This document shows, one piece after another, positions 26,195 through 57,782 of a stretch of 64,000 nucleotides of DNA (position 1 is its first letter; every line of letters begins with the position of its first letter). The DNA lies in contig OZ244723.1 in assembly GCA_965219325.1 (NCBI GenBank), positions 1,130,158-1,194,157 on the forward strand, read 5' to 3'. Below the pieces are notes generated by a model that saw only the letters and a program-made list of their open reading frames with translations, did no database searches and was not told the origin of the DNA. A program made the translations under genes and the position numbers. The stretch is from Dehalococcoidia bacterium. Its GTDB lineage: Bacteria; Chloroflexota; Dehalococcoidia; Lucifugimonadales; UBA2962.

Positions 26195-26241
26195 ACGGAT
26201 GCCGGTCGGCCCCAGGACCGTCCGGAGAGGAGGTGCGAACG

Positions 26242-28833
26242 ATGAAACTTGATCCGAGGAAGATATTCTCCGGCGGAGAGCGGCGCAGGCGTGTCCCGGT
26301 CCTGCTCGCGGTGACGCCCCCGCGCAAGGGCGAGCGAACGCTGCTGGGCGTCGAGAACCTGCTGGGTTCGATCGCCATCCCCGAGCCCTTCTCGCTGGAG
26401 ATGGCCGGCGATGCCGACGGGGTGACGCTGATGGCCCGGTGCATCGACAGGGAGGTGGTGCGGGGGCAAATAGCCGTGCGCTACCCGCAGGCCCGGATCA
26501 GCGAGTTGACGGAGGCGGATGACCCCCTGCGGGTCCGGGAAGGCGAGCAGGCCTGGGGCATGACGCTCCGGTCGGAGGGGCCCGACGAGGCCCCGCTGCG
26601 CACCTTTCGCGACGACGACCTGCTCGATCCCGGCTCCGACCCCCTGATGGCCATCATCGGGGCGCTGTCCTCTCTGCATCCCGGCGAACGGGTGGTGGCC
26701 CGGCTGCTGCTGCGGTCCCTGGGGCCGGACTGGGCCGAGGGCCACCGGGAGCAACCCCAGAAGGGCGGCACGCGGCAGCCGGACACCGGGGCTCCGGCTG
26801 AACAGCCGGCCAGCCACGGGGCCGAGGGCCTGAAGATGGCGGTGCTGGCCCTGGGCGGGCTGGCGGCCCTGAAGGGCTATTTCTGGGTACGGGACGGCGA
26901 GGTCTGGAAGGCCGTGCTGCTCGGACTCGGGTTGACGGCCGTCCTGGCCATCGGCGGCTGGGCGTGGGCGCGGTGGAAGAGGTCGCGCGACCGGGTGTGC
27001 GACCCGCTGCAGATCAGGGAGAAGGTGTCGCGTATCGCCTTTGACGCCGAGGTCCAGGTCACCGCGATCCTTCCGGCGGGAGACCAGCGCCGGCGCGCGG
27101 GGGACCTGCTCGGGAAGATCGAGGCTGCGTACCGCCACTACGACAACCCTGCCGGAGCCAGGCTGCGGGCGAGCAGGATACGACCGGTCCAGCCTGCCGC
27201 CTCCCTGCATCCGTCCGGCCCCGGGCTGTTCGGGCGGCGCAGCATCCTGGGCGTTCGCGAGGCTGCGGCGCTGTGGCACCCGCCCGGGGCGGCCGACGAG
27301 ACGCCGCTGGTGGCGAGGTCGGGTGCGAAGGTGCTGCTCCCCTCCGCCGCCAGCGTCAGGGGCGGGGCCCACGTCGGGGACACGACGACGGGGACTCCCA
27401 GCGAGATCCGCTTCCCGGCGGACCTGCTGCGGCGCCACCACCTGTACGTTGCCCGCACGCGTATGGGCAAGTCCACGCTCATGCACCACATAGTCGCCCA
27501 CAAGATGCGCGAGAAGGCGGCGGGAAGGGACACCGACGCCATAGTGGTGATCGATCCCCACGCGGACCTGGTGGAAGGACTGCTGGAGCACGTGCCCGAA
27601 TCCCTGGCGGGCCGGGTGCGCCTCATAGACCTTGCCGACGACGACAGGGCCCCGGGCATCAACCTGCTCGATACGAGGATCTTCGCCGACAGGGACCGGA
27701 CCGCCGATTCGGTGGTGCGGGTGGCAAAGGGGCTGTGGGAGCAGTGGGGTCCCAGGATGCAGTCGATCCTTGAGCACACGGTAAAGAGCCTGCACGAGGC
27801 GAACGAGGAGCTGGACGAGCGAGACCAGTACACGATCCTTGACGGTCTGCCGCTGCTCACCGACGAGGTGTTCCGGGCCGAGGTGCTAGGCAAGGTGGAT
27901 GACCCGTACCTGATTCGCTGGTGGGCCAGGGTATTCGGCAACTGGCATGAGAACCAGCACGCAGAGGCGATCGCCCCGGTGCAGACGCGCCTTTCGTACT
28001 ATGCGTCCTCGCGGCGGGCCCGCGCCATCCTGGGCCAGCCGCGCTCGACGATCGACGTGCGCCGGACGATCCTTGACGGGGGCGTGCTGCTGGTCTCCAC
28101 GGCGCAGGGAAGTGCGGGAAGGGATGTCGCGGCGCTGGTCGGTGCATCGCTGCTGAACCTGGTTGACGCGGTGATACGCGAGCAGGGGGCCCTGCCTGCC
28201 GGACGTCGTCGGGGCGTGCTCGTGGTCGTCGACGAGATGCAGTCGATGCCCGGTGTGGCCTACGAGTCGATGCTGAGCGAGCTCGGAAAGTTCGGTGCGA
28301 ACTTCATCCTGGCGACCCAGAGCCTGGCAAAGCTCGGGGACCTCTCGCTCACGATGCGCGACACGGTGCTGGCGAACGTCGGGTGCCTGGCGGTGTTCCA
28401 GGTGGCGGGCGCGGACGCGAGGGACCTTGTGTGGGAGCTGGGTCGCGAGCGCGTGACCGAGGACGACATCACCTCGCTGCCGGTGCACCACTGCTACGTC
28501 CGTGCGACGGTGGGCGCTGAGCGCATGCCGACGTTCTCGATGATGGTCAGGAAGCCGGAACCGGGTGATCCGGGCGTAGCCGCACGCATCGTGGGGGAGA
28601 CCGAGGGTTACACGACCTCGGCCGGGGACCTTGCCGCCCTCAGCGAGGAGACCGAGAAGATGGTCGCCGAGTACCGGGAGAAGCTGGCCGAGATCAGGAA
28701 GAGGGGGGCCTCGACCACTCAGAGGAAGAAACGCCGGGGCAGGCGCGGCAGGGCCGGGAAGGGGAGCGCCGCAGGGGCGGGATCCGGGCAGGCGGGCCAG
28801 GCATCTCCGGGCCACGGCGGAGGGGCCACATGA
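26242..28833 (+). CDS. type IV coupling-protein-like ATPase (VirD4/TraD/FtsK-HerA superfamily)
   Basis: ATG after GGAGAGGAGG. Two TM helices (residues about 200-250 of this CDS). Walker A ARTRMGKST, Walker B VLVVVDEMQSM, and GANFILATQS. Confidence 0.7.
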   Translation: MKLDPRKIFSGGERRRRVPVLLAVTPPRKGERTLLGVENLLGSIAIPEPFSLEMAGDADGVTLMARCIDREVVRGQIAVRYPQARISELTEADDPLRVREGEQAWGMTLRSEGPDEAPLRTFRDDDLLDPGSDPLMAIIGALSSLHPGERVVARLLLRSLGPDWAEGHREQPQKGGTRQPDTGAPAEQPASHGAEGLKMAVLALGGLAALKGYFWVRDGEVWKAVLLGLGLTAVLAIGGWAWARWKRSRDRVCDPLQIREKVSRIAFDAEVQVTAILPAGDQRRRAGDLLGKIEAAYRHYDNPAGARLRASRIRPVQPAASLHPSGPGLFGRRSILGVREAAALWHPPGAADETPLVARSGAKVLLPSAASVRGGAHVGDTTTGTPSEIRFPADLLRRHHLYVARTRMGKSTLMHHIVAHKMREKAAGRDTDAIVVIDPHADLVEGLLEHVPESLAGRVRLIDLADDDRAPGINLLDTRIFADRDRTADSVVRVAKGLWEQWGPRMQSILEHTVKSLHEANEELDERDQYTILDGLPLLTDEVFRAEVLGKVDDPYLIRWWARVFGNWHENQHAEAIAPVQTRLSYYASSRRARAILGQPRSTIDVRRTILDGGVLLVSTAQGSAGRDVAALVGASLLNLVDAVIREQGALPAGRRRGVLVVVDEMQSMPGVAYESMLSELGKFGANFILATQSLAKLGDLSLTMRDTVLANVGCLAVFQVAGADARDLVWELGRERVTEDDITSLPVHHCYVRATVGAERMPTFSMMVRKPEPGDPGVAARIVGETEGYTTSAGDLAALSEETEKMVAEYREKLAEIRKRGASTTQRKKRRGRRGRAGKGSAAGAGSGQAGQASPGHGGGAT

Positions 28834-30479
28834 GCACCGGGAGCCGGTCCCGGGCGATGCTGGCGCTGGCCGAGATGCCCCTGATCGATTGCCCGTCGCT
28901 GGCCGCAGTGTGCGGCATGGCTGAGCGCTCTGCCTACGAGGCCGTCGCCGGTCTCGAGCGGATCGGACTCGCCGCGCACGTCCCGCACACCACGAGCCTC
29001 CTCAACCCGACGCGGCGGTTCCATCTCACCGGCGCGGGGCTGAGGCTGCTGGCGCTGGAGCGGGATATTGCGCTTGACGAGGTGCTCGGGGCATACCCGG
29101 TCTCCCGCGCGTGGCGGCGGATCCTGCTCGAGAGACTCGATGCCGTGGCCGTCATATACAGGCTGGCGGCCGCGATCGCCGGGGAGCAGGGGCCGGTGGG
29201 GCTGCGCTGGTACAGGGCGCTCCCGCTGGACGCCGCGATCGTGCTCCCCGGAGGCCGGCCGGTCGGGGTGGTCAGGCAGGGACCGACCGCAGATCGGACG
29301 GGGTTTGCCAGGCGGCTGTGGAGGCTGCGCGAATTGCCGCGCATGAGTGGGGTACTGGTGCTCGCCTCCGACGAGATGCGTCTGCGCCACTCGATCAGGC
29401 TGCTCGCCGGCACGCCCCTGGTCTCCCTGGTCGCCCTGGAGAGGGACGCCGCAGGGGTGGGGCCGGGTGACCCGGTCTGGAAGCTGCCCTCGACCGCGGC
29501 CGCCATGGACCTTCGGCGCATGCTCTCTCACATCGAGAGGGCCGGTTCGCTTCCGGAGGAGAGGAGACTCTCACGGGCCTCCATGCCCGGGGACATCGCG
29601 GCCGACGGACCCGGGGATGACTTTCCCGCCTGCGTCCTGCCCGCGCTCCTTGGGTCCGCCGAGAAGCGCACGCTCGACATCCTGTTCGACTGGCCCTGGA
29701 TGGCGCAGAAGGACATGGCGGGTCTGCTGGGCGTCTCGGCCGCGCGCGCGTCCCAGCTCACGGCGTCCCTGGAGAGATTCGGCCTGGTCTCCCGCGCTCC
29801 CGACGCGGGTCGCCGCCTGGCGCTCACCGACCGTGGCCTCGGTCTGCTGGTCCGCAGGGACCGCGCGTCCTGGGGCGTTGCCAGGGGACGCTGGAGCATC
29901 TCGCCCGTCGACCCGGGCGAGCCGTTCTCCTGGCGCAATGTGTCCGGGGCCAGGAGCCGGCAGCTGCTCAGGAACCTTGCGCACACGGCAGCGGTACACG
30001 GCTTCATGGCCGCGCTGGCCGGACAGGCCCGGTCGTCCGGCTGGGAGGTGGTGCAGGTCGACCCGCCCACCCGGGCGTCGAGGTACTTCTGGCATGGGGG
30101 AACCCTGCGGTCCGTGCATCCCGACGCGTTCGGCATCCTGCGCAGGGGAGCCGAGACGTGGCCGTTCTTCCTGGAGTGGGAGCGGCGTGCGGTGAGGCCG
30201 GTCACGATGGCGGCGCGGCTCGCGCCCTATGTCCGTTACTACTCGACCCGCCGGCCCATCGACGACCACGGCGTGCGTCCCGCAGTCATGATCGTGTTCG
30301 ACGACGACCTGGCCGCTGCGGGCTTCCTCAGGGTGGCCCGCCGGGAGATCGAGGGGGCCGGGGTTTCGGTGCCCATCCTTGTTTCCGACAGGAGCACTGT
30401 GGACAGACTGGGGCCACTGGGTCCGGCGTGGCGCAAGGTTGGGGAGTGGTCATCCTGCCACGCTCTCCCCGCTGTTTAG
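28830..30479 (+). CDS. Replic_Relax (replication-relaxation) family protein with N-terminal wHTH repeats; putative relaxase
   Basis: ATGA overlap with the coupling-protein gene. C-terminal block ..LAHTAAVHGF...HPDAFGIL......WPFFLEWERR.. is as I know it for the replication-relaxation family. Confidence 0.7.
   Translation: MSTGSRSRAMLALAEMPLIDCPSLAAVCGMAERSAYEAVAGLERIGLAAHVPHTTSLLNPTRRFHLTGAGLRLLALERDIALDEVLGAYPVSRAWRRILLERLDAVAVIYRLAAAIAGEQGPVGLRWYRALPLDAAIVLPGGRPVGVVRQGPTADRTGFARRLWRLRELPRMSGVLVLASDEMRLRHSIRLLAGTPLVSLVALERDAAGVGPGDPVWKLPSTAAAMDLRRMLSHIERAGSLPEERRLSRASMPGDIAADGPGDDFPACVLPALLGSAEKRTLDILFDWPWMAQKDMAGLLGVSAARASQLTASLERFGLVSRAPDAGRRLALTDRGLGLLVRRDRASWGVARGRWSISPVDPGEPFSWRNVSGARSRQLLRNLAHTAAVHGFMAALAGQARSSGWEVVQVDPPTRASRYFWHGGTLRSVHPDAFGILRRGAETWPFFLEWERRAVRPVTMAARLAPYVRYYSTRRPIDDHGVRPAVMIVFDDDLAAAGFLRVARREIEGAGVSVPILVSDRSTVDRLGPLGPAWRKVGEWSSCHALPAV
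29962..30479 (+). repeat. direct repeat copy 1 (3' end of the relaxase gene); diverged copy at 49399..49915
   Basis: Encoded peptides are about 90% identical (..GWEVVQVDPPTRASRYFWHGG.. versus ..GWDVVQVDPPTRASRYFRHGG..). Confidence 0.8.
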
Positions 30480-30483
30480 GCTG

Positions 30484-46259: not shown

Positions 46260-48641
46260 ATGAAGAACGCCGGGGAGCTTGAGCGGGAGAACGAGGCCCT
46301 TCGCGACCGCCTCTCCAGGCTGAGCCAGGCCAGCCTGCGCATCAACGAGAGCCTGGACTTCGATGGCGTCCTTCAGGAGGTGGTGGACAGCGCCCGCGCC
46401 ATCACGGACGCCCGCTTCGGAGGGCTCACCACCGTGGACGGCTCGGGGCAGCTGGAGAGTTTCCTGAGCTCCGGCCTGACGCCCGAGCAACACGAGGCGC
46501 TGTACACCCCGGAGGGTCCGGCCATCTACGACCTCTTCCTGAATATGAAAGAGCCGCTGCGAGTCGACGACCTCACCGCCTACGTCAAGTCACTCGGCTA
46601 CCCCGGCAACTCGGCGTATCTGAAGAGCTTTCTGGGGACGCCGATCCTGCATCGCGGCGTGCCCGTTGGCCTGTGCTGTGTCGCCAACAAAGAGGGTGGG
46701 GGCGGGTTCACCCCCGAGGACGAGGCGACCCTGGTGATGTTCGCCTCCCAGGCGGCGCTGGTCATCGCCAACGCCCGCAGGCACCGGGAGGAGCAGCGGG
46801 CCAGGACCGACCTGGAGACCCTGGTGAACACCACACCTGTGGGCGTCTTGGTGTTCGACGCCAAGACGGGCGGCGTGACGTCGGTCAACCGGGAGGCCAG
46901 GAGGATCGTCAGCGACCTGTGTGCGCCCGGCGGCTCGGCGGAGCAGCTGCTGGAGGTGCTGACCTTCCGGCGGTTCGACGGGAGGGATGTCTCTCTGGAG
47001 GAGTTCCCCCTGGCCCTGGCGCTGAGCACGGGGGAGACGGTGCGAGCGGAGGAGATCGTCCTGCAGGGTCCCGAGGGTCGCAGCGTCACCACCCTGATCA
47101 ACGCCACGCCCATCTTCTCCGAGGAGGGCGAGGTCGAGTCGGTGGTCGTGACCCTACAGGACATGACGCCGATGGAGGAGCTTGAGCGGCTGCGGGCCGA
47201 GTTCCTGGGCATGGTGAGCCACGAGTTGCGGACGCCCCTGGCCGCCGTCAAGGGATCGGTGGATACCCTTCTGGAATCCGCCTCCGACCTGGACTCTGCC
47301 GAGATGACGCAGTTCTTCAGGATCATCCGCGACCAGTCGGAGAACATGCGTTACCTGATAGGCGACCTGCTGGACGTGGCCCGCATCGAGACGGGCACCC
47401 TGCCGGTTTCCCCCGAACCCGTAGAGGCGGGCGTCCTGGTGGACGAGGCCAGGAGCAGGTTCCAGAGCGGGGGCGGAAGGAGCAACCTCGTTATCGACCT
47501 GCCGCCGGATCTGCCCCGGGTCATGGCGGACCGGCGGCGCATCGTCCAGGCACTGGGCAACCTGCTCTCCAACGCGGCCCACCACTCGAACGAACTGTCC
47601 CCCATCCGGGTGGCCGCAGTGCGGGATGGCGTCCACGTCGCCTTCTCGGTGGCGGACGACGGCGTGGGCGTGCCCGCCGAGCGGCTGCCGCACCTGTTCC
47701 GCAAGTTCTCCCGGCTCGACGGCGAGGAGCGGGGACGTGAGATAGCCGGGTCGGGCCTGGGACTCGCCATCTGCAAGGGGATCGTGGAGGCCCACGGCGG
47801 CCGCATTCGGGCCGAGAGCGACGGGCTTGGTCTGGGAAGCCGGTTCACCTTCACCGTTCCGGCGGTGGAGGAGGCCGTCGCCCTTCCCCCTCCACGGTCA
47901 CGCCGGCGCAGGAGCAAGACCGCGGAGCGGCCCCGCGTCCTGTGCGTGGACGACGACCCGCAGACGCTCCGGTACGTGCGGGACGCCCTCACCAAGGCGG
48001 GCTACACGCCCGTCGTGACCGGAGACCCGGAGGAGGTCTCCCGGCTCATGGCGGAGGAAGCGCCCCGCCTGGTCCTGCTGGACATGATGCTGCCGGGCAG
48101 CGACGGCATGGAGCTGATGAAGGACATCCGGGAAGTCTCCGACGTGCCGGTCATCTTCCTGTCCGTCAACGGCCAGGAGGAGGTCGTCGCCCGGGCCTTC
48201 GACATGGGAGCGGCCGACTACGTGGTCAAGCCCTTCTCGCCGACGGAGCTTGCGGCCAGGATCAGGGCGGCCCTGCGCAAGCTGCGCAAGCGCGCGGCGC
48301 CGGAGCTGGCCCAGCCCTCCGAGCCCTACGTGCGTGGAGACCTGACCATCGACTATGCCCAGCGCAGGGTTACGGTGGCCGGCCGCCCGGTCGAGCTCAC
48401 CTACACCGAGTACCGGATGCTGGTCGAGCTTTCGGTGAACGCGGGGCGGGCGCTGACCCACGTGCACCTGCTGCAACGGGTCTGGGGACCGGACAAGGGC
48501 GAAGACACCGGGCCGGTGAGGAACATCGTCAAGAGGCTGCGCCGCAAGCTGGGCGAGGACGCGTCCAACCCGGCCTTCATCTTCGCCGTGCCCAGGGTCG
48601 GCTATCGGATGGAGAAGGGGGAGGGGCAGGAGGATGCGTGA
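46260..48641 (+). CDS. single-polypeptide two-component system: coiled coil, GAF, PAS, HisKA, HATPase_c, REC, OmpR/PhoB-type winged-helix DNA-binding domain
   Basis: H-box FLGMVSHELRTPL, N-box LGNLLSNAAHH, G-boxes VADDGVGV and GSGLGLAICKGIVEAHGG. REC: VLCVDDD...LVLLDMMLPGSDG...KPF. wHTH: ELTYTEYRMLVEL...VRNIVKRLRRKL...VGYRM. No TM segment seen. Confidence 0.9.
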   Translation: MKNAGELERENEALRDRLSRLSQASLRINESLDFDGVLQEVVDSARAITDARFGGLTTVDGSGQLESFLSSGLTPEQHEALYTPEGPAIYDLFLNMKEPLRVDDLTAYVKSLGYPGNSAYLKSFLGTPILHRGVPVGLCCVANKEGGGGFTPEDEATLVMFASQAALVIANARRHREEQRARTDLETLVNTTPVGVLVFDAKTGGVTSVNREARRIVSDLCAPGGSAEQLLEVLTFRRFDGRDVSLEEFPLALALSTGETVRAEEIVLQGPEGRSVTTLINATPIFSEEGEVESVVVTLQDMTPMEELERLRAEFLGMVSHELRTPLAAVKGSVDTLLESASDLDSAEMTQFFRIIRDQSENMRYLIGDLLDVARIETGTLPVSPEPVEAGVLVDEARSRFQSGGGRSNLVIDLPPDLPRVMADRRRIVQALGNLLSNAAHHSNELSPIRVAAVRDGVHVAFSVADDGVGVPAERLPHLFRKFSRLDGEERGREIAGSGLGLAICKGIVEAHGGRIRAESDGLGLGSRFTFTVPAVEEAVALPPPRSRRRRSKTAERPRVLCVDDDPQTLRYVRDALTKAGYTPVVTGDPEEVSRLMAEEAPRLVLLDMMLPGSDGMELMKDIREVSDVPVIFLSVNGQEEVVARAFDMGAADYVVKPFSPTELAARIRAALRKLRKRAAPELAQPSEPYVRGDLTIDYAQRRVTVAGRPVELTYTEYRMLVELSVNAGRALTHVHLLQRVWGPDKGEDTGPVRNIVKRLRRKLGEDASNPAFIFAVPRVGYRMEKGEGQEDA

Positions 48642-49099
48642 CAGAGCCGAAAGAGGAAACGGAGCCACTGTGTTCCCTCTTTGCGGCCCTCAGCCCTGTC
48701 ACGCCATAATAGTCAAGCCCCGGTTAGGCTCCGGGCTTTGGTAGGTGCCCCGAGCCACATCTCGAAGATAGTGCCATCTACCGTCCACTTAGGCCCACCT
48801 ATGGGGACTCGAACCGCATTTCATCCACGGCGAGCTACCCCACAACGACCAAGGATCCTCCCTAACTTGCCAAATGGTCTACGACCGCAAAGTGCCAACG
48901 GCGATGAGACGCCCGTATTGGGGAAACTCTGCAAGCTGATAGGCAACAAGCTCAAAGACCGCAGTCGGTTTGCCACCAAATCCCTTTTGGCCCAGTAGCT
49001 AACTCATTTGACTCGTGTTGAGCGTCGTCATGAGATGCTCCCGCCGGGTTGAACTATCTTAGGCCGAGATGAATATCGAGATCGGAGGAATCACTACCC

Positions 49100-49390
49100 A
49101 TGCCACAGTTCACTACGACAACTCTGGAAGAAGCGCAGAGGCTCACGGGCGGCGGAAAGAGGGAGAAGGAACTGGCCGCATACCTTGAGAGCGTCAACGG
49201 CCTGTCCGCTGGAACTGCGGGCAAAGTGGTCCCGTCGGAGGGCGAGAGCCTATCGACGGTGAGGCGCAGGCTGGGCGACGCTGTGCGCAGGTCGGGTCGG
49301 GACATCGAGATAAGACGAACGGATGACGCCGTCCATTTCTGGATCAAGGAGGGGCGTCGCCGGGGTCGCCCGAGGTCCCGTCGCGAATAG
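49100..49390 (+). CDS. small AT-hook-like DNA-binding protein (96 aa), copy 1
   Basis: ATG after GGAGGAA. C-terminus RRRGRPRSRRE (RGRP core). About 90% identical to 51508..51798. Confidence 0.6.
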   Translation: MPQFTTTTLEEAQRLTGGGKREKELAAYLESVNGLSAGTAGKVVPSEGESLSTVRRRLGDAVRRSGRDIEIRRTDDAVHFWIKEGRRRGRPRSRRE

Positions 49391-49398
49391 AGCCGCCA

Positions 49399-49915
49399 AC
49401 TGCCAAGGAACCTTGCGCACACGACGGCGGTAGACGGTTTCGTCGCGGCGCTGGCCGTGCAGGCCCGATCGACCGGCTGGGATGTGGTGCAAGTCGACCC
49501 TCCCACCCGTGCGTCCAGGTACTTTCGGCACGGGGGGATCCTGCGGTCCGTGCACCCGGACGCGTTCTGCATCCTGCGCAGGGGAGCCGTGACGTGGCCG
49601 TTCTTCCTGGAGTGGGAGCGGCGAGCGGTACGGCCGGTCACCATGGCGGCGCGGCTCGCGCCCTACGTGCGTTACTACTCGACCCGCCGTCCCATCGACG
49701 ACCACGGCGTGCGGCCCACGGTTATGATCGTGTTCGACGACGACCTGGCCGCCGCGGGCTTTCTTCGGGTGGCCCGCCGGGAGATGGAGAGGGCCCGGGC
49801 TGTGGTACCCCTCCTTGTCTCGGACAGGGGAACGGTGCACAGGCTGGGGCCGCTGGGACCGGCGTGGCGCAAGGCTGGGGAGTGGTCGTCCTGCCATGCT
49901 CTACCCGCGGCCTGA
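49399..49915 (+). pseudogene. 3' fragment (last roughly 170 codons) of a second, diverged Replic_Relax relaxase gene
   Basis: ..RNLAHTTAVDGFVAALAVQARSTGWDVVQVDPPTRASRYF... is collinear with residues about 378-549 of 28830..30479. It has no N-terminal part and starts directly after the stop of 49100..49390. Confidence 0.75.
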
Positions 49916-49918
49916 GCA

Positions 49919-51301
49919 TTAGGATTCTCCCGGGTCATCGTAACTCTCATCCAATGCGACCTCCTGTTCGGGCCAAACAAATGGAGAGTACGTGTAGTCT
50001 TCTTCCCGCGTTTCGCCAACCGACCAAGTGTCGAATACTACGTCGAGTAGCCAAATCAGCGCAGATTCCAGATCGAGAGGTCCGGATTCCGGGTCATACT
50101 TCTCGTCCCAGCCAAGCAGTTCCTCCAGCTTCTCACTCAGGTGCAGTGCTGACCGGTATACATTCCCGACACTCTCCGCAGATCCGTCCACCAAAGAGTA
50201 AATGTGTCGATCGTAAGCGGTGCTGAGTTCGTCGTATCTCTCTGCCTCCTCTAGGCTCAGTTTGCGTTTGTGAACTTCCGCTCGGGGACCAAAGGGTTCA
50301 CTCTTGAACCAGTACATGACTGTAGCCCAGTGAAACTCGAAGCGCAGGGCTGTTCGGGGTGTCTGCAGATGCTTTTCCTCATAGGCTCCCTCCAGCATGC
50401 GGCAAACGAGGCGTTTAACTGCGTCCGGGATTTTCTCTTCCGCGCCCATGAAATCTACGTTCTCCAAAGGCATGACAGCGTATTCAGCATCTTCGTCTAT
50501 GACTTCGGTCCACAGATTCTTATATGCCGCCAAGTTCCTGTACGGGAACGTCCATCGGAACGGGAATCGCGTCGCGTCGTACCTGAGGTGTCCCGACCCA
50601 CGTGCAACGAAGTCCTGTCCTTCGCTGCTGAGCGCTTCTAGCTTCATCGCTATCTTTACAGGCCGTTCCACGTCGGTACCGATTTGCGCGCGAATGTGTT
50701 CAAAGATATCCGTGGCGGGCTCCGCACTTGTGCCAGATTGACGAAGTACCTTTTCCAACCTCTCACGTGACCTCAATTCTGAAAGCCGACAGACAGGAAT
50801 GCCCCTACTCCTAGCGGTATGTGAGAGGTCCCAATCTCTGGTAATGAGCAGGGTCGAGGTTTCAGGAAACGCTCGTGAACAGTCGTCTGCCAGCTTGAGC
50901 AGCGAAGTGTCGACCTTCCCTAAGATCATGCGGAACCGTTCATCCTCCAGCTTGCTGCCATTGGAGGGCTTTGCGGAGTCAACCGTGATCAAGAAATGTC
51001 CGTTGTTAAGCTCGATCCCGGTAGCTGCATTCCCTCGCTTGTAAATCCTGTCAGTCAAGCTGCAGGCCCTATAGGCTTTCTCCTGAGTCTCTTTGTCTTT
51101 GCCGCCTCGCTTCAGTTTCATTAGTTCACTGACCACCAGGACAGGAACAACCATCAGGAATTTGCCTTCTGTGTTTATCTCATACAAGTCCAACCTTGGG
51201 GCGTCCATTATCGTGTTGGTGTCCAAGAGCAATATCCCGCGCGGGTTCAAACGGCTAACGGCGTCCACAAGGTTGTCAGGTGATTCCATCTCAGGCTCCA
51301 A
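49919..51301 (-). CDS. PIN-domain protein (N-terminal about 190 aa) with a roughly 270-aa C-terminal domain of unknown function
   Basis: PIN acidic positions: ILLLDTN, VVSELMKLK, DTSLLKLA, LLITRDWDL. Markedly lower G+C than flanking DNA. Confidence 0.7.
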   Translation of the reverse strand: MEPEMESPDNLVDAVSRLNPRGILLLDTNTIMDAPRLDLYEINTEGKFLMVVPVLVVSELMKLKRGGKDKETQEKAYRACSLTDRIYKRGNAATGIELNNGHFLITVDSAKPSNGSKLEDERFRMILGKVDTSLLKLADDCSRAFPETSTLLITRDWDLSHTARSRGIPVCRLSELRSRERLEKVLRQSGTSAEPATDIFEHIRAQIGTDVERPVKIAMKLEALSSEGQDFVARGSGHLRYDATRFPFRWTFPYRNLAAYKNLWTEVIDEDAEYAVMPLENVDFMGAEEKIPDAVKRLVCRMLEGAYEEKHLQTPRTALRFEFHWATVMYWFKSEPFGPRAEVHKRKLSLEEAERYDELSTAYDRHIYSLVDGSAESVGNVYRSALHLSEKLEELLGWDEKYDPESGPLDLESALIWLLDVVFDTWSVGETREEDYTYSPFVWPEQEVALDESYDDPGES

Positions 51302-51507
51302 CTGTCGAAGATCTCAAGTTAAATCCGAATTCAGCCGTTTCTTGAAGGCTTCACTTCACTCACCTAAGTGTAAGGCAGTCTTTAATCATCTCTCTGTTTC
51401 TCGGGTAGCATGGCAGGTGGCCATCTGGAATCTCTTCCCGGTAGTCTCGAGGTCTTGTACAACGTACGCTCCGATACCTCATAATCTGATTGGAGGAACC
51501 ACTAACG

Positions 51508-51798
51508 ATGCCACAGTTCACGACGACGACCCTGGAGGAAGCGCTAAGGCTCACGGGCGGCGGCAAGAGGGAGAAGGACCTGGCCGCGTACCTTGAGAGC
51601 GTCAACGGCCTGTCCGCCGGGACCGCCGGCAAGGTGGTCCCGGCGGAGGGAGAGACCCTATCGACGGTCAGGCGCAGGCTGGGGGACGCCGTCCGCAGGT
51701 CGGGCCGGGACATCGAGATAAGGCGAACGGACGCCGCCGTCTTTTTTTGGGTCAAGGATGGCCGTCGCAGGGGTCGCCCGAGATCCCGCCGCGAATAG
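51508..51798 (+). CDS. small AT-hook-like DNA-binding protein (96 aa), copy 2
   Basis: MPQFTTTTLEEALRLTGGGKREKDLAAYLESVNGLSAGTAGKVV... with an RRRGRPRSRRE tail. RBS GGAGGAA. Confidence 0.6.
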   Translation: MPQFTTTTLEEALRLTGGGKREKDLAAYLESVNGLSAGTAGKVVPAEGETLSTVRRRLGDAVRRSGRDIEIRRTDAAVFFWVKDGRRRGRPRSRRE

Positions 51799-51938
51799 AA
51801 CCACCGGCTTCTCGTCCTAACGTGGGTGGCATTCCGGGCGGGTAGCCCGGGCGAGGGTAGGGGCTGGACGACTATAGTTCTCTTGCCGCTGGCCGGTTCA
51901 CCCGTCCCGCCGATGGGCATTGCGGCCAGCCGTTCGCG

Positions 51939-52367
51939 TCAATCCAACTTCAGTGGCACCTGGAGCCTTAAGACCTCTTCGGGCACCCCGAAGTGCTCGG
52001 CGACTTGCCAAGAGTGGGTGAATCCCCGCTCGACAACCTCGCGCACGTCCAGCAGAAGTGTGTGGGCAAAGTCCTCGGCCTCCCGCTCGAACTTGTGGGC
52101 GAGACCGGTGTGTTTGCGAATCCAGAGGTGGTTGCCCGGGTGCATGAGCAGGTGCCCGATGGCGTGAGCCATGCACCATCGCTTCCACTCCGGCTCAAGC
52201 CTGTGCGCGATGCATACGAATTCGCCGAGCTTAAGCTCCTTATGTTTGCGCAGGGGCCGCTGCCATATCTCCAGTTCCAGGATGTCGGCCACTCCCTTAG
52301 CGTCGACCCGGCCGTGGAGCCTGAGCATGCGGCGAAGCTCCACGGCCCTTCGCTGCGCACGGTTCAT
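51939..52367 (-). CDS. ImmA/IrrE-like metallopeptidase-fold protein with a variant zinc motif (HAIGH instead of HExxH)
   Basis: ..WCMAHAIGHLLMHPGNH.. aligns with the ..AHELGH..LH.. core of the family. Its ATG overlaps the stop of the upstream XRE gene. Confidence 0.6.
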   Translation of the reverse strand: MNRAQRRAVELRRMLRLHGRVDAKGVADILELEIWQRPLRKHKELKLGEFVCIAHRLEPEWKRWCMAHAIGHLLMHPGNHLWIRKHTGLAHKFEREAEDFAHTLLLDVREVVERGFTHSWQVAEHFGVPEEVLRLQVPLKLD

Positions 52368-52744
52368 CAGCCACCCTGCTTCTTCCTCCTCCGGCGCTCC
52401 CGCACGAATCGTATGAATTCCCGTATCTCCTCGAGGTCCTCGATCGGAAGGCCTGTGACGGAGTCCCTGAAGGAGACGTCGGCCTCCTTGAGAAGCTCGG
52501 CCTCGACGACGTCCATGCCAAACAGCGACTCGGTGCTGACCTCGAACAGATAGGCGAGCTCGAGCAGGTGGTCGGCGTTGGGCTTCATCTTCCCGGCCTC
52601 CCAGCACCAGACGGAGTGATTGCTGACGCCGACCAGCCTGGCGACCTGCTTCTGGGTCAGGCCGGCCCTGTTCCTGGCCTCCCTGATGCGGGCGCCGATG
52701 TCCTTCCACTTGTAGCCGTCGTCCTGCGGCGTGTTCGCGGTCAA
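52367..52744 (-). CDS. XRE-family HTH repressor (ImmR-like partner)
   Basis: IGARIREARNRAGLTQKQVARLVGVSNHSVWCWEAGKMKP. Confidence 0.8.
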   Translation of the reverse strand: MTANTPQDDGYKWKDIGARIREARNRAGLTQKQVARLVGVSNHSVWCWEAGKMKPNADHLLELAYLFEVSTESLFGMDVVEAELLKEADVSFRDSVTGLPIEDLEEIREFIRFVRERRRRKKQGG

Positions 52745-52804
52745 GGCTGACGATCGGCTCGGGGAAGGGATGTGGTCACGGGGAAAGGGTCAGCACGAAC
52801 GTTC

Positions 52805-52833
52805 TTGTGTTGCTGTCAATCCTATCATAGAAT
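52805..52833 (+). promoter_or_regulatory. sigma-70-like promoter candidate in the divergent XRE/XRE intergenic region
   Basis: TTGTGT (52805-52810), a 17-nt spacer, then TAGAAT (52828-52833). Confidence 0.35.
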
Positions 52834-52843
52834 GAAGCTCTAA

Positions 52844-53119
52844 GTGCACTTATGGTATCACCACGAGGAGCGAATTCACCGCATGGCGCGCACGGGACGG
52901 ACGGTCGTCCTACTGAAGAGACGGGTCCTCTGGGACCGGCTGGATCTGCTGAACAGGTCGCAGAGCTGGCTGGCCCGCGAGGTTGGGATCAGCCCCAGCT
53001 ACCTGTCGAGGCTGCTGCGGGACGGACGTGCTCCGTCCGGGCGCATCCGGCGCCGGTTGCAACACGTTCTGGGCTTCGACGGCTTCGACGACCTGTTCGA
53101 GCTGGAGCGCCCGGGTTGA
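52844..53119 (+). CDS. XRE-family HTH regulator (start uncertain: GTG 52844 or ATG 52883)
   Basis: ..LLNRSQSWLAREVGISPSYLSRLLRDGRAPS..RRRLQHVLG...FDDLF. Paralog of 30484..30894. Confidence 0.65.
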   Translation: MHLWYHHEERIHRMARTGRTVVLLKRRVLWDRLDLLNRSQSWLAREVGISPSYLSRLLRDGRAPSGRIRRRLQHVLGFDGFDDLFELERPG

Positions 53120-53439
53120 AGCGGCGCTGGCGCTTTCTTCCCCCCGCTTCCTGCTGCGGCGGGCTCAGGATCGATGACCGTCTGCTCGTCTATGCCACGG
53201 CCCAGTTGCCGGAGGACTTCCCCCAGCGTCTGTGCCGGTTCAAGGAGATGACCGGGCTGAGCTGGAACCAGCTCTGCGACGTCCTGGGGGTGAGCAGCAA
53301 GCAGATGCGCCGGTGGCGGAAGGGGATCGAGCCGTGCGGCGGTGCGATGCTGGCGATCATCTGGGTTGCATCCCAGGTTTCGGGCGGCCTGGACGTGATC
53401 ATGGGCGAGGGATTCGCGGCGTCCTTCGCGACGGTCTGA
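53116..53439 (+). CDS. small HTH protein, paralog family member (start uncertain; TTG overlapping the upstream stop is proposed)
   Basis: ..LPEDFPQRLCRFKEMTGLSWNQLCDVLGVSSKQMRRWRKG.. Confidence 0.45.
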   Translation: MKRRWRFLPPASCCGGLRIDDRLLVYATAQLPEDFPQRLCRFKEMTGLSWNQLCDVLGVSSKQMRRWRKGIEPCGGAMLAIIWVASQVSGGLDVIMGEGFAASFATV

Positions 53440-53443
53440 CAGC

Positions 53444-53704
53444 ATGCCCCGTCAGCGGAGGACATACAGGAAGCTGAGACACGTCGTTCCCGAGGAGTTC
53501 GGGGAGAGCCTTGTTCGCTTCAAGGAGGCCTCGGGCCTGCCGTGGGGAGAGATCGCGCGGCTCATCGGGAGCACCGAGTTGGCGCTGTGGCGGTGGCGGA
53601 ACGGGGTGCATCCCAACTGGCCGCACCTGCTTGCCCTGCTGGACCTTGCGGAGGGCCTGGGGCTGGCGCACACGCTTCCCATACGCAGGGTACGTCCCCG
53701 GTAG
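53444..53704 (+). CDS. small HTH protein, paralog family member (86 aa)
   Basis: MPRQRRTYRKLRHVVPEEFGESLVRFKEASGLPWGEIARLIGSTELALWRWRNG...LGLAHTL. Confidence 0.6.
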   Translation: MPRQRRTYRKLRHVVPEEFGESLVRFKEASGLPWGEIARLIGSTELALWRWRNGVHPNWPHLLALLDLAEGLGLAHTLPIRRVRPR

Positions 53705-53995
53705 GGCTCCGCAACCGAACCCCACCTCGCATGGATGGCTGCCGTCGCCGAACGGCCGGCGGCTTATGAGCTGACGTCCTTTCCCACATCGTCAGGCGCC
53801 TTCGCCCGTGGTCCGGGTGTGTCCCTTCGATCAACCGACCTCTCTCCAGGTGGACCGTTCATCGGTGAACGCGCCTAAGGGACCTTATCGCGGGGTTCTA
53901 CCGGGCGACACACTTGCCATACAGAACGGTAGTTCTTTCGTGCGTCCGGAGCAATTCGCCTCGGACGCCGGGTGGCCGGTGACGAGGAGGTTGTC

Positions 53996-54208
53996 ATGCA
54001 AGGCGGGAAGAGGCCGAACGAAACTAGAGCTAAACGCGGGCAGTCGCCGGAGCCGCATATAGGTACGGTCACCTTCAATCCCGGTCCCGACGCCGAGGAC
54101 CGGTTGCGCAGGCTGTTCATCCTGCTGCTGGGCTTGGCGAACGAGGCCCGGACACCTGGGGAGGGTAGGGACGGGGGTGCCTGTAGCGATGCCGGGGGAG
54201 GGGAATGA
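53996..54208 (+). CDS. small hypothetical protein (70 aa)
   Basis: ATG after GAGGAGG. ATGA overlap with the next gene. Confidence 0.4.
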   Translation: MQGGKRPNETRAKRGQSPEPHIGTVTFNPGPDAEDRLRRLFILLLGLANEARTPGEGRDGGACSDAGGGE

Positions 54209-55044
54209 CGGCGCCGGATCCTTCCCTCACGGTCATCAGCCTGGGCGGAGGCGTGCAGTCCTCTGTCATGGCCCTGATGGCAAGCGAAGGCGCATTCGAC
54301 AGGATTCCCGACTGCGCCATCTTCGCCGACACCGGGTGGGAGCCTCCCAGCATCTATGAACACCTCGACTGGCTCTCAGGCCGGCTCCGGTTTCCGCTCC
54401 ACATCGTGGACAATGGCCGGAGTCTGCGTGACGACACCAGGGCCCTCACCAACCACTCGGACTCTCTCAACTACGTAGACATCCCCGTGTATCTCAGGGG
54501 ACGCGACGGTCAGGCCGACGGCATAGGCAGGCGCCAGTGCACCCAGAACTACAAGATCAGGCCGGTCCGGACCATGATCCGCGAGCTGTTGGGGGTGGGG
54601 AAGGGAGAGCGGGTTCCGGCCGGCACCACTGTCGAGTTGTGGCTCGGCATTTCGACCGACGAGTTCAGCCGCACACGCCCATCTCGCGAGCGGTGGATGC
54701 ACAACCGCTATCCGCTGATCGAGGCGCGGATGTCGCGGCGGGACTGCACGGACTGGTGGGAGGCGCGTTACGACAGGCCGCTGGAGAGATCGGCATGCGT
54801 GGCCTGTCCCTACCAGTCACGCAAGCGGTGGGTGGAGACGATGCACAGATGGCCCGAGCTGTTCGCCGAGGCTGTGGAGATTGACGCCAGGATGCGTGGC
54901 AGGCTGGCGTTTGCGAAGGAGCCGTACCTTCATCCCCGCCGTATACCGCTGGCCGAGGCGGTGAAGCTTGACGAGGCGGAAGTCGGCGCAGGCGGGCAGG
55001 CCGACGGCTTTGGCAACGAGTGCGAGGGGCACTGCGGAGTCTGA
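54205..55044 (+). CDS. PAPS-reductase/PP-loop family protein (phage/ICE type)
   Basis: N-terminal PP-loop-like VISLGGGVQSSVMAL. C-terminal Cys pair CVACPYQS. Confidence 0.65.
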   Translation: MTAPDPSLTVISLGGGVQSSVMALMASEGAFDRIPDCAIFADTGWEPPSIYEHLDWLSGRLRFPLHIVDNGRSLRDDTRALTNHSDSLNYVDIPVYLRGRDGQADGIGRRQCTQNYKIRPVRTMIRELLGVGKGERVPAGTTVELWLGISTDEFSRTRPSRERWMHNRYPLIEARMSRRDCTDWWEARYDRPLERSACVACPYQSRKRWVETMHRWPELFAEAVEIDARMRGRLAFAKEPYLHPRRIPLAEAVKLDEAEVGAGGQADGFGNECEGHCGV

Positions 55045-55184
55045 AAGGTCCGACAGGGTTTTGACCTTCGTTCACGACCCCCGCTAAGATGCTGGGAGCA
55101 GGTGGCCCGGCGATGCGGCAAACATCCCGGGCCGTGACACCACCTGAAAGAGGCAGGTGATGCGAACGGGATTGTAATGCGCAA

Positions 55185-55220
55185 AGACCCGCTTCCGACA
55201 GGTGGCGGGTCTTTTTGTTT
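55185..55220 (+). terminator. rho-independent terminator
   Basis: AGACCCGC, a 12-nt loop, then GCGGGTCT followed by TTTTGTTT. Confidence 0.7.
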
Positions 55221-55251
55221 CGTGCGAATGTGAATCGGCAGGAGGCGAACC

Positions 55252-56865
55252 TTGACGGAAAAGGGAAAAGCGAACGCGGAGCCGAATCGCGCGGCGGTCT
55301 ACGCCCGGGTGTCGGACAAGAGCCAGGCTGCCGAGGACAGGACCTCCATCTCGGAGCAGGTCGCGGACATGGAGGCGTACTGCGAGCGCAGGGGGCTGAC
55401 CATCGTCGCGCGCTACCAGGAGGTGGGCAGGGGCTGGTCGAAGAAGCGTCCTGAGTTCCAGAGGATGCTCGAGGAAGCCCGCCAGGGGCGATTCGACACG
55501 ATCGTTTGCTGGAAGTCGGACCGTCTAAGTCGGGGAGTATACCCGGCCGCGGTGCTCATGGAGGTGGTCGAGGCCTACGGTATCACCATCGAGTCGGTGA
55601 TGGACTCCATGGACATGAAGTACTTCGGGCTGATGGCAGCGATCGGCAAGATCGAGATCGACAACTTTCGCGAGCGTGCGTCGATGGGCAAGCGGGGAGC
55701 GGCCAAGCGGGGGCGCATACCGATCGGGGGGTTGCCCTACGGATATCGCAACGGGGAGGACGGGAAGGCCGAGGTGGAGGAGACGGAGGCGGCCGTCGTC
55801 GGGCGCATCTTTCGCCAGTACGTGCATGAGGGCGTGGGTACGCGAACGATCGCCCGGATGCTGGAGGATGACGGAGTACGTCCTCACCAGGGCGGGAGGC
55901 GGTGGCACCAGTCCCATGTCTATCGCATCCTGGGGAACGAGACCTACAGGGGAGTGTGGAACTACGGCCAGACGCGTACGACGAGGACAGATCAGGGCAA
56001 GAAGGTTCGTAATCGGCCGCGCGAGACCTGGATATCGGTGGCGGTGCCGCCACTGGTGGACGAGGAGACATGGGACCGCGCCCAGAGGCTCAAGAAGGAA
56101 CGCCTGAGGGGCTCAAGGCGGAACACGAAGGTCTTCTATCTTCTACAGCACATGATGAGGTGCGCCGAGTGCGGGACGCTGCTTGGGGCCAGGTCCACCT
56201 GGACCACGACCAGAACGCGCAACGGCAAAAGGCAGCGCTACAGGATGCCCAGTCCCCGCCGGTACTACTGCTGCTACGGCTCGGCTCGACGTGTGACCTG
56301 TCGTGAGCGATCACACATCAGGGCGGAGCAGTTGGAGGGATTGGTGTGGCGCGAGGTGAGCGAGGTGCTGAGAAACCCCGAACTGATCCTGTCCGGCATC
56401 GATGTGGTTGATTCGGTGGCGGGCAACGGGGTGGCTGAGAAGGCGGTCAGCGTAGAGCGTGAGCTGCGGACGGTCCAGAGACAGGAGGACCGGGCGATCG
56501 ACCTGTATGTGGCGGGCAGGATAGACGAGCGGCAGTTCGAGCGGCAGCGTGGGCGGATCACCGAAAGGCTTGATGTCCTGCGGACGAAGCTGGAGCATAT
56601 CCGCGTCCAGGAGGCAACCGCCGCCGACAGGCGGCTGGCGGCGGAGAACATCATCGCCTGGATGGATAAGATCGGGAATGACCTGGACGAGCTTGCTCCC
56701 GAGGAGCGCAGAGAGATCCTGATGACGATCGTTGAGGGGATCACCGTGGACCGGCACAACAGGGTGGATATCGCCCTGGCCGTGCCGACCGGGGAGGCGT
56801 TGTCGATTGATTCTCAGTCATCGACATGTCCGGCTATTCGTTCACGCCCGACGAGGCCACCCTAA
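55252..56865 (+). CDS. large serine recombinase (integrase of the element)
   Basis: TTG start after GGAGG. Resolvase-type N-terminus AAVYARVSDKSQ...ICWKSDRLSRG, a recombinase domain, a Cys-rich zinc-ribbon region (CAECG...CCYG) and a coiled-coil tail. Confidence 0.9.
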   Translation: MTEKGKANAEPNRAAVYARVSDKSQAAEDRTSISEQVADMEAYCERRGLTIVARYQEVGRGWSKKRPEFQRMLEEARQGRFDTIVCWKSDRLSRGVYPAAVLMEVVEAYGITIESVMDSMDMKYFGLMAAIGKIEIDNFRERASMGKRGAAKRGRIPIGGLPYGYRNGEDGKAEVEETEAAVVGRIFRQYVHEGVGTRTIARMLEDDGVRPHQGGRRWHQSHVYRILGNETYRGVWNYGQTRTTRTDQGKKVRNRPRETWISVAVPPLVDEETWDRAQRLKKERLRGSRRNTKVFYLLQHMMRCAECGTLLGARSTWTTTRTRNGKRQRYRMPSPRRYYCCYGSARRVTCRERSHIRAEQLEGLVWREVSEVLRNPELILSGIDVVDSVAGNGVAEKAVSVERELRTVQRQEDRAIDLYVAGRIDERQFERQRGRITERLDVLRTKLEHIRVQEATAADRRLAAENIIAWMDKIGNDLDELAPEERREILMTIVEGITVDRHNRVDIALAVPTGEALSIDSQSSTCPAIRSRPTRPP

Positions 56866-57782
56866 GGGGCCTGTGGGACCGGCCCTACACGATGGACATG
56901 GTTGGAACCTACCAGCGCATCGTCTGGTTCAACCGCGATCTCATGCAGCTCTACAGCGAGCAGGAGGCCCTAGGCGAGGTGAGACGCTTCATGCTCGCCG
57001 GGGGTGGAACCGTGGTCGACACGACCAACTGGGACCTCGGGCGCAGCCCGGGGACCCTGGCCCGCATCTCCCGCGCGACCGGGCTGAACATCGTCATGGG
57101 CTGCAGCCACTACGTTCCCCTGCTGCGCCCGCCCGACATGGACGAGCGCACGGAGGAATCCATATGCGATCGCATCGTGGCCGACATCACCGTCGGAGTG
57201 GGTGATACGGGCATAAAGTCGGGGGTGATCGGCGAGGTCGGCAACGTGCACCCGCTGGACGACAATCAGCGCAAGGTCCTGCGTGCCTCCGCCCAGGCCC
57301 ATCTGGATACCGGCGCCCCGATCTCGATACACCCCGGCGGCGTGGACGAATCTCCCATGGCCATCTTGGAGGTCCTGGCTGAGGCGGGCGTCGACCTTAC
57401 ACGGGTGATCATGGGCCACCTCGATTTCGCGGTCCGCGATAACGCGGTCCTAAAGTCGGTCGCAGAGACCGGGTGCTTTCTGGAGTACGACACCGTCGGC
57501 GCGGAGGACAGCGGAATGAGCTACATGGGGGCCGAGCTCCGGATGCCCACCGACGGCGAGCGGCTCTCGGCACTGGACTTCCTGATGGAGGAGGGATACG
57601 GGGACCGAATACTGCTCGCCCAGGACGTGTGCTTTAAGAAGATGCACGTGGCCAGCGGCGGCAAGGGCTTTGCGCACATAGTCGAGTCGATCGTGCCGCG
57701 CCTGCGAAAGCGCGGCTATACCCAGGACCAGATCGACGGCTTTCTGGTAAGGAACCCCGCCGCTGCATTGGCCTTCAGCTAG
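56826..57782 (+). CDS. phosphotriesterase-family (PTE/PHP-like) hydrolase, apparently 5'-truncated
   Basis: Has GEVG, APISIHPGG, IMGHLD and LLAQDVC metal-ligand blocks but lacks the N-terminal HxH block. The frame is closed by a stop at 56808, inside the recombinase 3' end. Confidence 0.7.
   Translation: MSGYSFTPDEATLRGLWDRPYTMDMVGTYQRIVWFNRDLMQLYSEQEALGEVRRFMLAGGGTVVDTTNWDLGRSPGTLARISRATGLNIVMGCSHYVPLLRPPDMDERTEESICDRIVADITVGVGDTGIKSGVIGEVGNVHPLDDNQRKVLRASAQAHLDTGAPISIHPGGVDESPMAILEVLAEAGVDLTRVIMGHLDFAVRDNAVLKSVAETGCFLEYDTVGAEDSGMSYMGAELRMPTDGERLSALDFLMEEGYGDRILLAQDVCFKKMHVASGGKGFAHIVESIVPRLRKRGYTQDQIDGFLVRNPAAALAFS

Follow-up and report, generated by a model that had tools for sequence, protein, structure and literature searches.

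The window analysed here comprises 64,000 nucleotides (nt) of the genome of a Dehalococcoidia bacterium (GTDB lineage Bacteria; Chloroflexota; Dehalococcoidia; Lucifugimonadales; UBA2962; GCA_965219325.1, contig OZ244723.1, forward strand, positions 1,130,158-1,194,157). Between ~48.7 and 56.9 kb it contains the stump of a decayed integrative conjugative element (ICE), and within this stump lies the subject of this work, a minus-strand gene coding for a predicted PIN-domain nuclease with an orphan C-terminal domain (Table 1). The stump is made up of a gene for a 96-amino-acid (aa) protein, the last 173 codons of a relaxase gene, the PIN gene, a second 96-aa gene, ImmA-like and ImmR-like genes, three small helix-turn-helix (HTH) genes, a PAPS-reductase-like gene and the gene for a large serine recombinase, which probably marks the right end of the element remnant. 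A first-pass annotation, made from the window alone, had already placed the gene in an accretion hotspot next to an ImmR/ImmA-like switch; the ImmR/ImmA pair is borne out, and the setting is a decayed conjugative element with a large serine recombinase. An intact conjugation module, ICE-1, is located in the same window and codes for a VirB4/TraC-like ATPase, a TrwB-like coupling protein and a 549-aa Replic_Relax relaxase, together with minus-strand HTH genes.

The longest open reading frame (ORF) of the PIN gene begins at a TTG codon and would encode 460 aa, but the ATG at 51289 is favoured by the N-terminal consensus of the family (MEAPxNLV) and by a GGAG site located 8 nt before it. The likely product is therefore 456 aa in length, as is the database entry P0001; residue numbers below follow the 460-aa ORF. 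On the evidence of sequence profiles and structural models, the N-terminal part is assigned to the PIN domains of the SMG6/PhoH-associated type, with a full predicted active site. The Pfam PIN_4 model, which is also precomputed for most homologues, matches residues 25-171 over profile positions 2-129 of 132 (E 3.4e-10; 40.8 bits, against a gathering cut-off of 21.9). Among 47 full-length homologues D27 and E59 are at least 90% conserved, D131 and T154 are invariant and position 156 is occupied by D or E. When the profile is compared with solved structures, D27 and E59 align with the SMG6 motifs and the last acidic site with the 'LVTnD' motif of TTHA0540. The nearest Foldseek match of the full model is human SMG6 (2hww; E 1.2e-4, probability 1.0, target-normalised TM-score 0.57-0.61), with target-normalised TM-scores of 0.69 for TTHA0540 (3ix7) and 0.62 for MJ (3i8o), and further matches to Nmd4, the PIN domain of Rrp44 and the archaeal PIN-ATPase 5f4h. 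Profile alignment, conservation and fold thus bear out the four acidic positions of a PhoH/YlaK-associated PIN nuclease that had been read from the sequence. A PHROG of PhoH-like proteins matches the PIN part only (E 2.7e-6, profile positions 6-130 of 443), neither a PhoH nor any other P-loop domain was found in the protein with Pfam or NCBIfam, and no homologue is fused to a PhoH ATPase. The protein shares the fold and the four acidic residues of SMG6, TTHA0540 and the PhoH2/YlaK-like module over its N-terminal 190 residues, but in place of the C-terminal PhoH-type ATPase of PhoH2/YlaK, or of a TRAM or 14-3-3-like domain, it carries a 230-residue domain of its own and an acidic tail.

AlphaFold2 modelling with the family alignment predicts two well-defined domains separated by a disordered linker (~190-209) and followed by a disordered tail (442-460), with a mean predicted local distance difference test (pLDDT) score of 84, and of 86-94 over most of the PIN domain. 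Modelled alone (residues 205-445), the C-terminal domain reaches a pLDDT of 87.8 and a predicted template modelling (pTM) score of 0.81, and is predicted to consist of three long antiparallel strands, about six helices and a closing strand. It carries the conserved motifs GxG, FRWTFPY, MPLENVDFMG and TWSVGETRE. The first-pass annotation had found nothing recognisable in the last ~270 aa, and the available libraries agree: the domain has no sequence or profile match in Pfam, NCBIfam, PADLOC, PHROGs or PDB sequences, and no Foldseek match in the PDB or BFVD better than E 0.016, with query-normalised TM-scores below 0.25. Three weak candidates were set aside. NurA, the top Foldseek match, is noise (E 0.065-0.3, query-normalised TM-score 0.14-0.17, root-mean-square deviation ~20 Å), matches to NTF2-like proteins cover only ~40 residues of long hairpins and differ in topology, and a match to Fur in the profile search of PDB sequences is weak (E 1.1). 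A profile of the domain run against 1.84 billion representative proteins returned 32 proteins, all of which have the PIN domain followed by the C-terminal domain (starting at about residue 200) or are fragments. The two parts differ in isoelectric point, which is 7.7 for the PIN part and 4.75 for the C-terminal domain. The composition of the tail is conserved and its sequence is not, with 9-16 Asp/Glu and almost no Lys/Arg among the last 25 residues in most homologues.

The gene is foreign in composition. Its G+C content is 0.531 (0.50-0.54 along the ORF), against 0.65-0.70 in the flanks and 0.655 for the window, confirming the low-G+C opposite-strand ORF that had been noted between the repeats, and at the loci examined of the long form of the family (L001-L014) the gene lies 7-13 points below its flanks. 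At third codon positions the window gene has a G+C of 0.61 and the five full-length homologues that were checked 0.53-0.59, which suggests that the low G+C is not merely an effect of amino acid composition. The closest homologue locus, L016, is 81% identical to the window at the DNA level, and this similarity is restricted to the ORF and 73 nt upstream of it. Many of the homologue genes start 10-50 nt behind a co-oriented gene, and visual inspection of 13 homologue loci revealed no shared promoter, operator or other upstream sequence.

A word-indexed search recovered 54 clusters with the PIN plus C-terminal domain architecture, none of which bears a protein name. A pattern-limited scan of one genome per species in the GTDB (185,579 species genomes) found ten loci, all in Dehalococcoidia metagenome-assembled genomes, as is every homologue that can be assigned to an organism. 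Four loci only were found in a scan of JGI metagenomes, and there are no relatives of the PIN protein in IMG/VR viral contigs. One genome contains two copies (L006 and L011), one of them inside a conjugative element. In another, the sole copy (L014, 10001-10540) is truncated to 179 aa and matches query residues 5-123 at 50% identity.

The gene also occupies two chromosomal hotspots. In the first, shared by four related genomes, it is located between a VWA-domain gene and pepP, where the neighbouring proteins are 84-98% identical and the PIN proteins 47-52%. In the second, between Fic and Uma2 genes (L010, L012 and L026), the flanks show 82-96% DNA identity and the PIN gene is far more diverged. 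Comparison of protein identity in 40-residue windows shows that this divergence is unevenly distributed. L001 and L008 are 79-95% identical over residues 1-240 and 31-56% identical from residue 241 to the end. L026 is 72-90% identical to L012 over residues 1-160 and 11-55% identical to it from residue 201 to the end, while its identity to L010 is 32-50% over residues 41-200 and 72-90% over residues 201-320. L026 therefore joins a PIN domain like that of L012 to a C-terminal domain like that of L010, and the two modules reassort. The pairwise ratio of non-synonymous to synonymous divergence (dN/dS) of the PIN gene is 0.19-0.27, indicating purifying selection on both domains; the gene thus evolves by swapping of its PIN and C-terminal modules under purifying selection. 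Hotspot alleles have reached saturation at synonymous sites even though their host genomes are closely related, so that the alleles must be older than the divergence of their hosts and have been exchanged or replaced.

Many copies of a dispersed ~130-bp repeat of 90-98% identity, which resembles a miniature inverted-repeat element, are scattered around the Fic-Uma2 hotspot (for example L010 3363-3498 and 15634-15764; L012 996-1129, 7248-7376, 13112-13243, 18522-18653 and 20391-20526).

The relaxase fragment beside the PIN gene, also noted in the first-pass annotation, is confirmed by a match of its called ORF to the Replic_Relax model (positions 133-189 of 191, E 8e-4, below the gathering score) and by 87.5% DNA identity to the 3' end of the intact ICE-1 relaxase gene (29954-30472). 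An intact element with the gene in place is present at locus L011 of another Dehalococcoidia genome, where a serine recombinase, ImmA/ImmR, three HTH genes, a 236-aa gene and the PIN homologue are met, convergent with the last of these, by a relaxase, a coupling protein and VirB4; ICE-1 is 66-75% identical to this element at the DNA level. A three-way alignment of the end of the ICE-1 relaxase gene, the backbone of L019 and the stump shows agreement as far as the stop codon of the relaxase. Beyond it ICE-1 and L019 stay together, while within 3 nt the stump has passed into the PIN gene from its 3' end. A cargo site thus lies immediately downstream of the relaxase gene; it is occupied in two elements (L011 and the window stump), whose PIN proteins are 42% identical, and is empty in two related backbones (ICE-1, whose relaxase gene is followed by no PIN gene, and L019). 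The gene is accordingly cargo of a family of Dehalococcoidia conjugative elements as well as of chromosomal hotspots. As the two stop codons are separated by only 3 nt, there is no space for an attC site, and an integron-cassette reading was rejected. A homing-endonuclease reading was considered and dropped; we know of no PIN homing endonuclease. A 65-aa minus-strand ORF (49722-49919) runs antisense to the relaxase fragment and overlaps the stop codon of the PIN gene; it is considered spurious.

This position raises the possibility that the gene serves the conjugative element, either as an addiction module acting through post-segregational killing or as an exclusion or competition factor against rival elements. 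Occupation of the same post-relaxase site by two such dissimilar PIN proteins would fit this, as would the ImmR/ImmA switch and serine recombinase among the in-element neighbours and the genome that holds a second copy within an element. Conjugation genes are, however, found at only two of the ~17 distinct loci, to which L004 may be added for a nearby homologue of the 96-aa gene, the majority of copies reside at chromosomal hotspots, and ICE-1 and the L019 backbone do without the gene, so that a role in the service of the element appears unlikely.

The PIN gene and the relaxase fragment are bracketed by two direct copies of the 96-aa gene, as the first-pass annotation had stated. The copies (49080-49379 and 51488-51787) are 88% identical over 300 nt, with starts 2408 nt apart. 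Similarity extends from ~20 nt before the ATG, including a GGAGG ribosome-binding site, to ~12 nt past the stop codon, such that each repeat copy represents one 96-aa gene and nothing else. The two proteins share all but 8 of their 96 residues, and both terminate in GRRRGRPRSRRE, in which the R-G-R-P core of an AT-hook with basic flanks can be recognised by eye. No Pfam domain was detected in the protein or in its 51 homologue clusters, whose members are mostly 96 aa long, no similarity was found to the missing part of the relaxase, and no relatives occur in IMG/VR viral contigs. BLAST matches of the repeat unit to other contigs reach E values down to ~1e-110, far beyond chance. The 24 synonymous and eight non-synonymous codon differences between the copies (dN/dS 0.10) indicate two diverged, selected genes rather than a fresh duplication. 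Copy 1, copy 2 and the copy in L019 are about equidistant from each other (synonymous divergence, dS, 0.33-0.43; dN/dS 0.10-0.20), and the junction between the 96-aa gene and relaxase codon 377 recurs in L019 and L020 (87-88% nt identity) without a PIN gene. Both repeats thus represent old copies of a small backbone gene that have been under selection.

Direct repeats of ~315 bp on either side of a 2.1-kb segment might also suggest a composite mobile unit in which the two gene copies serve as the ends and the relaxase stub and PIN gene are carried along as one block. This is highly improbable and was rejected, as the copies are 12% diverged in the pattern of selected genes, neither is markedly closer to the other than to the L019 copy, the repeat coincides exactly with a gene and its ribosome-binding site, no other PIN locus is bracketed in this manner, and the junction of 96-aa gene and relaxase stub exists in L019 and L020 in the absence of the PIN gene. 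The bracketing observed in the first-pass annotation is thus real, but the repeats do not delimit a unit with which the PIN gene moves; they have been juxtaposed by recombination or accretion of related element backbones. With the relaxase stub they are the remains of two such recombined backbones and lie outside the nuclease system.

Two further observations concern the 96-aa gene. The first copy and the relaxase fragment (window 49100-49915) share a reading frame, with only a TAG codon between them (...GRPRSRRE, stop, SRQLPRNL...), which could be due to chance (1 in 3) or could reflect a read-through fusion of the AT-hook module to the relaxase C-terminal domain. In addition, a ~700-bp sequence encoding a protein of 190-220 aa occurs at 6239-6978 in the window, 5834-6498 in L004 and 5313-5502 in L019, and three times in L021 (9129-9809, 12755-13366 and 17512-17713). 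It is located just upstream of the 96-aa gene or its homologue in L021 and L004 and appears to travel with it.

The first-pass annotation saw no adjacent antitoxin-sized partner, and across ~17 loci, whose neighbours vary from one to the next, no conserved small or antitoxin-like gene was found. ORFs which overlap the PIN stop codon downstream in L001, L004 and L018 were rejected as antitoxins. They occupy the position of the pepP start in L008 and look like remains of the pepP 5' end; the ORF in L001 resembles the N-terminus of L008 pepP by eye and that in L004 has a Creatinase_N match. No tandem repeats surround the PIN gene in the window and Rfam gives no match at E <= 0.1 in 48000-57500, so that neither the repeat array nor the structured RNA of a type III (RNA antitoxin), ToxIN-like system was detected beside the gene. 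The VapBC systems likewise comprise a PIN-fold RNase toxin and are often found on mobile elements, but VapC is three times smaller (~130-150 aa), PF01850 is not among the matches of the window protein, which belongs to PIN_4, and no locus has an upstream, adjacent and co-transcribed antitoxin gene. The mosaic alleles and domain swapping might also recall a polymorphic or contact-dependent toxin with an immunity gene that has escaped recognition. We regard this as the least probable of the explanations considered here, given that the nuclease is N-terminal, opposite to its place in known polymorphic toxins, that Pfam detects no trafficking domain and that no small gene is conserved downstream.

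The genes in the neighbourhood of the homologues include several with links to defence or mobility, and L004, L010, L012, L016, L018 and L026 are clear cases of a defence-like setting. L016 is accompanied by a type IV methyl-directed restriction enzyme, DUF7662 and Vsr, L018 by the PDC-M02A/B candidate defence pair, L004 by a type I restriction-modification system, HicB and Fic, and L005 by HicB. L010 and L012 have DUF3800 directly upstream and SoFic and Uma2 nearby, L026 is accompanied by Uma2, Fic and a Y1 transposase, and transposases are also found beside L006, L009 and L010. The DUF3800 gene (L010 9204-9965; L012 9203-9949) shares the low G+C (0.53) of the PIN gene it precedes, and in L011 the equivalent position is taken by the unrelated 236-aa gene, which has no family match. 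In L006 (10001-13059) and L027 (10001-13446) a TPR-repeat gene of low G+C (0.50) comes after the PIN gene and travels with it, DNA similarity between the two loci being limited to this two-gene unit; the TPR gene may be a partner in this subclade. PADLOC-DB 2.0 returned zero families for the window protein at E <= 1 and zero for the L012 homologue at E <= 0.01.

Taken together, its rarity, its hypervariability and its shuffling by recombination in soil Dehalococcoidia make the family a credible candidate for a new one-protein toxin or defence system. The reading we prefer, with a probability of roughly 0.55, is that of a self-contained and probably auto-inhibited PIN RNase conflict gene of three parts, namely an effector, a lineage-restricted domain and an acidic tail. 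The effector would be the N-terminal Mg/Mn-dependent PIN endoribonuclease of the SMG6/PhoH-associated type, kept inactive within the same polypeptide by the C-terminal domain, the acidic tail or both. The tail could mimic nucleic acid and perhaps occupy the nucleic-acid groove of the PIN domain. The C-terminal domain would most simply be a regulatory or sensing module, and on meeting a trigger brought in by an invading phage or a rival mobile element it would release the nuclease, which would then cleave cellular RNA and arrest growth. The C-terminal residues kept in both subfamilies of the family (the long form and the sister subfamily described below) are mostly glycine and aromatic (GxG, F248, W250, F284, W426 and G429), with D283, E304 and T431, and by their nature look like those of a scaffold or binding domain rather than of a second active site. 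The toxin, abortive-infection or exclusion function raised in the first-pass annotation is a putative one. Whether the family also amounts to an undescribed one-protein immune or conflict system confined to Dehalococcoidia, with a PIN effector, a new-fold sensor and an auto-inhibitory acidic tail, its modules reassorted and its alleles placed at hotspots and at the post-relaxase cargo site, is a more tentative proposal, to which we give somewhat less than an even chance.

The proposed logic is shared by the fused toxin-antitoxin defence protein CapRel(SJ46), in which an N-terminal toxin is reportedly restrained by its own C-terminal domain, which senses the invader. The toxin of CapRel(SJ46) is said to be a RelA/SpoT-like pyrophosphokinase, unrelated to PIN, and its auto-inhibition to have been demonstrated; in the window protein we only infer it. 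The closest functional precedent found is DS-3 of E. coli, a validated one-protein PIN defence system in which the PIN domain is catalytically required and which has no cognate antitoxin; its authors propose auto-inhibition until infection (PMC13092281). The likeness is one of description, a single PIN polypeptide without an antitoxin, and homology is not claimed. The PIN domain of DS-3 is split between the N- and C-termini (PMC13092281), unlike that of the window protein, which is entirely N-terminal and whose family is absent from PADLOC. In the DefensePredictor study gene G+C content was the top non-embedding predictor, with defence genes tending to lower G+C (PMC13092281). What is new in the window protein is the domain, which is seen nowhere else, and what is known is the type of system, a single protein based on a PIN nuclease.

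Several observations weigh against the three-part conflict gene. The step from a PIN nuclease with an orphan domain to an auto-inhibited defence protein or toxin is an inferred one, purely so where inhibition by the C-terminal domain or tail is concerned, and the full-length model has a pTM of 0.52, which makes the inter-domain geometry uncertain. The dN/dS values give no signal of positive selection, only of purifying selection. PADLOC hits were obtained both among 99 ORFs within 4.5 kb of the homologues and among 96 ORFs more than 5.5 kb away, so that an enrichment of defence genes around the homologues is at most suggestive, and L002 and L017 have metabolic genes as their only neighbours. 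There is, furthermore, a sister subfamily of ~41 clusters (395-413 aa, 24-26% identical) which retains the PIN domain, the sheet and the DFxG and WSxG motifs, with a shorter helical part, and which lacks the acidic tail (L023 405-1592, L024 1405-2598, L025 and L015). At the four loci seen its hosts are lower in G+C (0.39-0.50), the gene differs from its flanks by no more than ~3 points in three of them and is ~5 points higher in L015, and its neighbours are ordinary, among them a YqeY-like gene, rsgA and genes for membrane proteins.

These contexts, with the metabolic ones of L002 and L017, sustain the view of the protein as a nuclease with an ordinary role in RNA processing or regulation, related to the PhoH2/YlaK-type PIN proteins and bearing a lineage-specific RNA-binding domain, and the PhoH/SMG6 type of its PIN domain and a dN/dS of ~0.2, indicative of a maintained function, agree with it. 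We nevertheless disfavour this view, to which we give about one chance in eight at most, in light of the rarity of the family, its composition and its hypervariability. No PhoH ATPase or other known RNA-binding domain is detected by Pfam, alleles of low identity sit between well-conserved flanking genes, the modules reassort, the gene is low in G+C at the long-form loci, and in one genome the only copy is truncated. The long-form family, being rare, low in G+C, hypervariable and mosaic at syntenic sites, gives no indication of a housekeeping role, and the three-part conflict gene remains the preferred reading.

Table 1. Features of the PIN locus and of ICE-1 in the window (aa, amino acids; CDS, coding sequence)
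Feature	Position	Strand	Remarks
ICE-1	21888-31908		intact conjugation module
VirB4/TraC-like ATPase of ICE-1	23912-26194		
TrwB-like coupling protein of ICE-1	~26242-28833		
Intact Replic_Relax relaxase of ICE-1	28830..30479	+	549 aa; 3' junction is the empty-site comparator
Direct repeat copy 1	49080..49402	+	ribosome-binding site and 96-aa gene with RGRP tail; CDS 49100-49390
Last 173 codons of Replic_Relax relaxase	49391..49915	+	called ORF 49457-49915; in frame with 96-aa ORF
PIN and orphan-domain gene	49919..51289	-	456 aa from ATG at 51289; longest ORF from TTG 51301, 460 aa
Disordered acidic tail (predicted)	49922..49978	-	last 25 residues with 7 Asp/Glu and no Lys/Arg
Orphan C-terminal domain	49979..50674	-	residues 210-441; predicted three long strands and final strand on about six helices
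Variable low-confidence linker	50675..50731	-	residues 191-209; pLDDT 40-47; mean pairwise identity 26%
PIN_4 domain	50732..51289	-	residues 5-190; predicted catalytic residues D27, E59, D131, D156
5' leader	51290..51374	-	only flanking DNA that stays similar to L016; the 81% identity stops here
Direct repeat copy 2	51488..51802	+	CDS 51508-51798
ImmA-like M78 peptidase	~51939-52363	-	within 51939..52744
ImmR-like HTH repressor	52367-52744	-	within 51939..52744
Three small HTH genes	52844..53704	+	homologous to the HTH113/190/95 genes of the intact L011 element
PAPS-reductase-like gene	54205..55044	+	typical of mobile elements
Large serine recombinase	55252..56865	+	

Beyond the recombinase end of the stump (window 56826-59543) lies a phosphotriesterase-family gene, the longest ORF of which overlaps the recombinase gene by 40 nt, followed by a minus-strand DDE_5 transposase gene (58128-59543). 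The 5' end of the phosphotriesterase gene, or a point close to it, may have been the place of integration by the recombinase. Between ICE-1 and the stump are two giant minus-strand ORFs of 2914 and 1681 aa (window 31505-45662), the second of which contains seven PPC and two fn3 domains, and L019 has cadherin/fn3/Calx-beta giants at a comparable position.

The family is narrow and its significance therefore moderate, and should the proposed role be wrong it would merely be another uncharacterised PIN protein. The gene is, however, small and self-contained and can be tested directly in a heterologous host. If the interpretation holds, a new sensor or regulatory fold would be added to the short list of single-polypeptide nuclease defence and toxin systems, and the reassortment of modules at syntenic sites would constitute a natural experiment marking the part of the protein that sets specificity. 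It would also offer an initial glimpse of conflict genes and of conjugative elements in the soil Dehalococcoidia, a large, uncultivated group which is almost undescribed in this respect.

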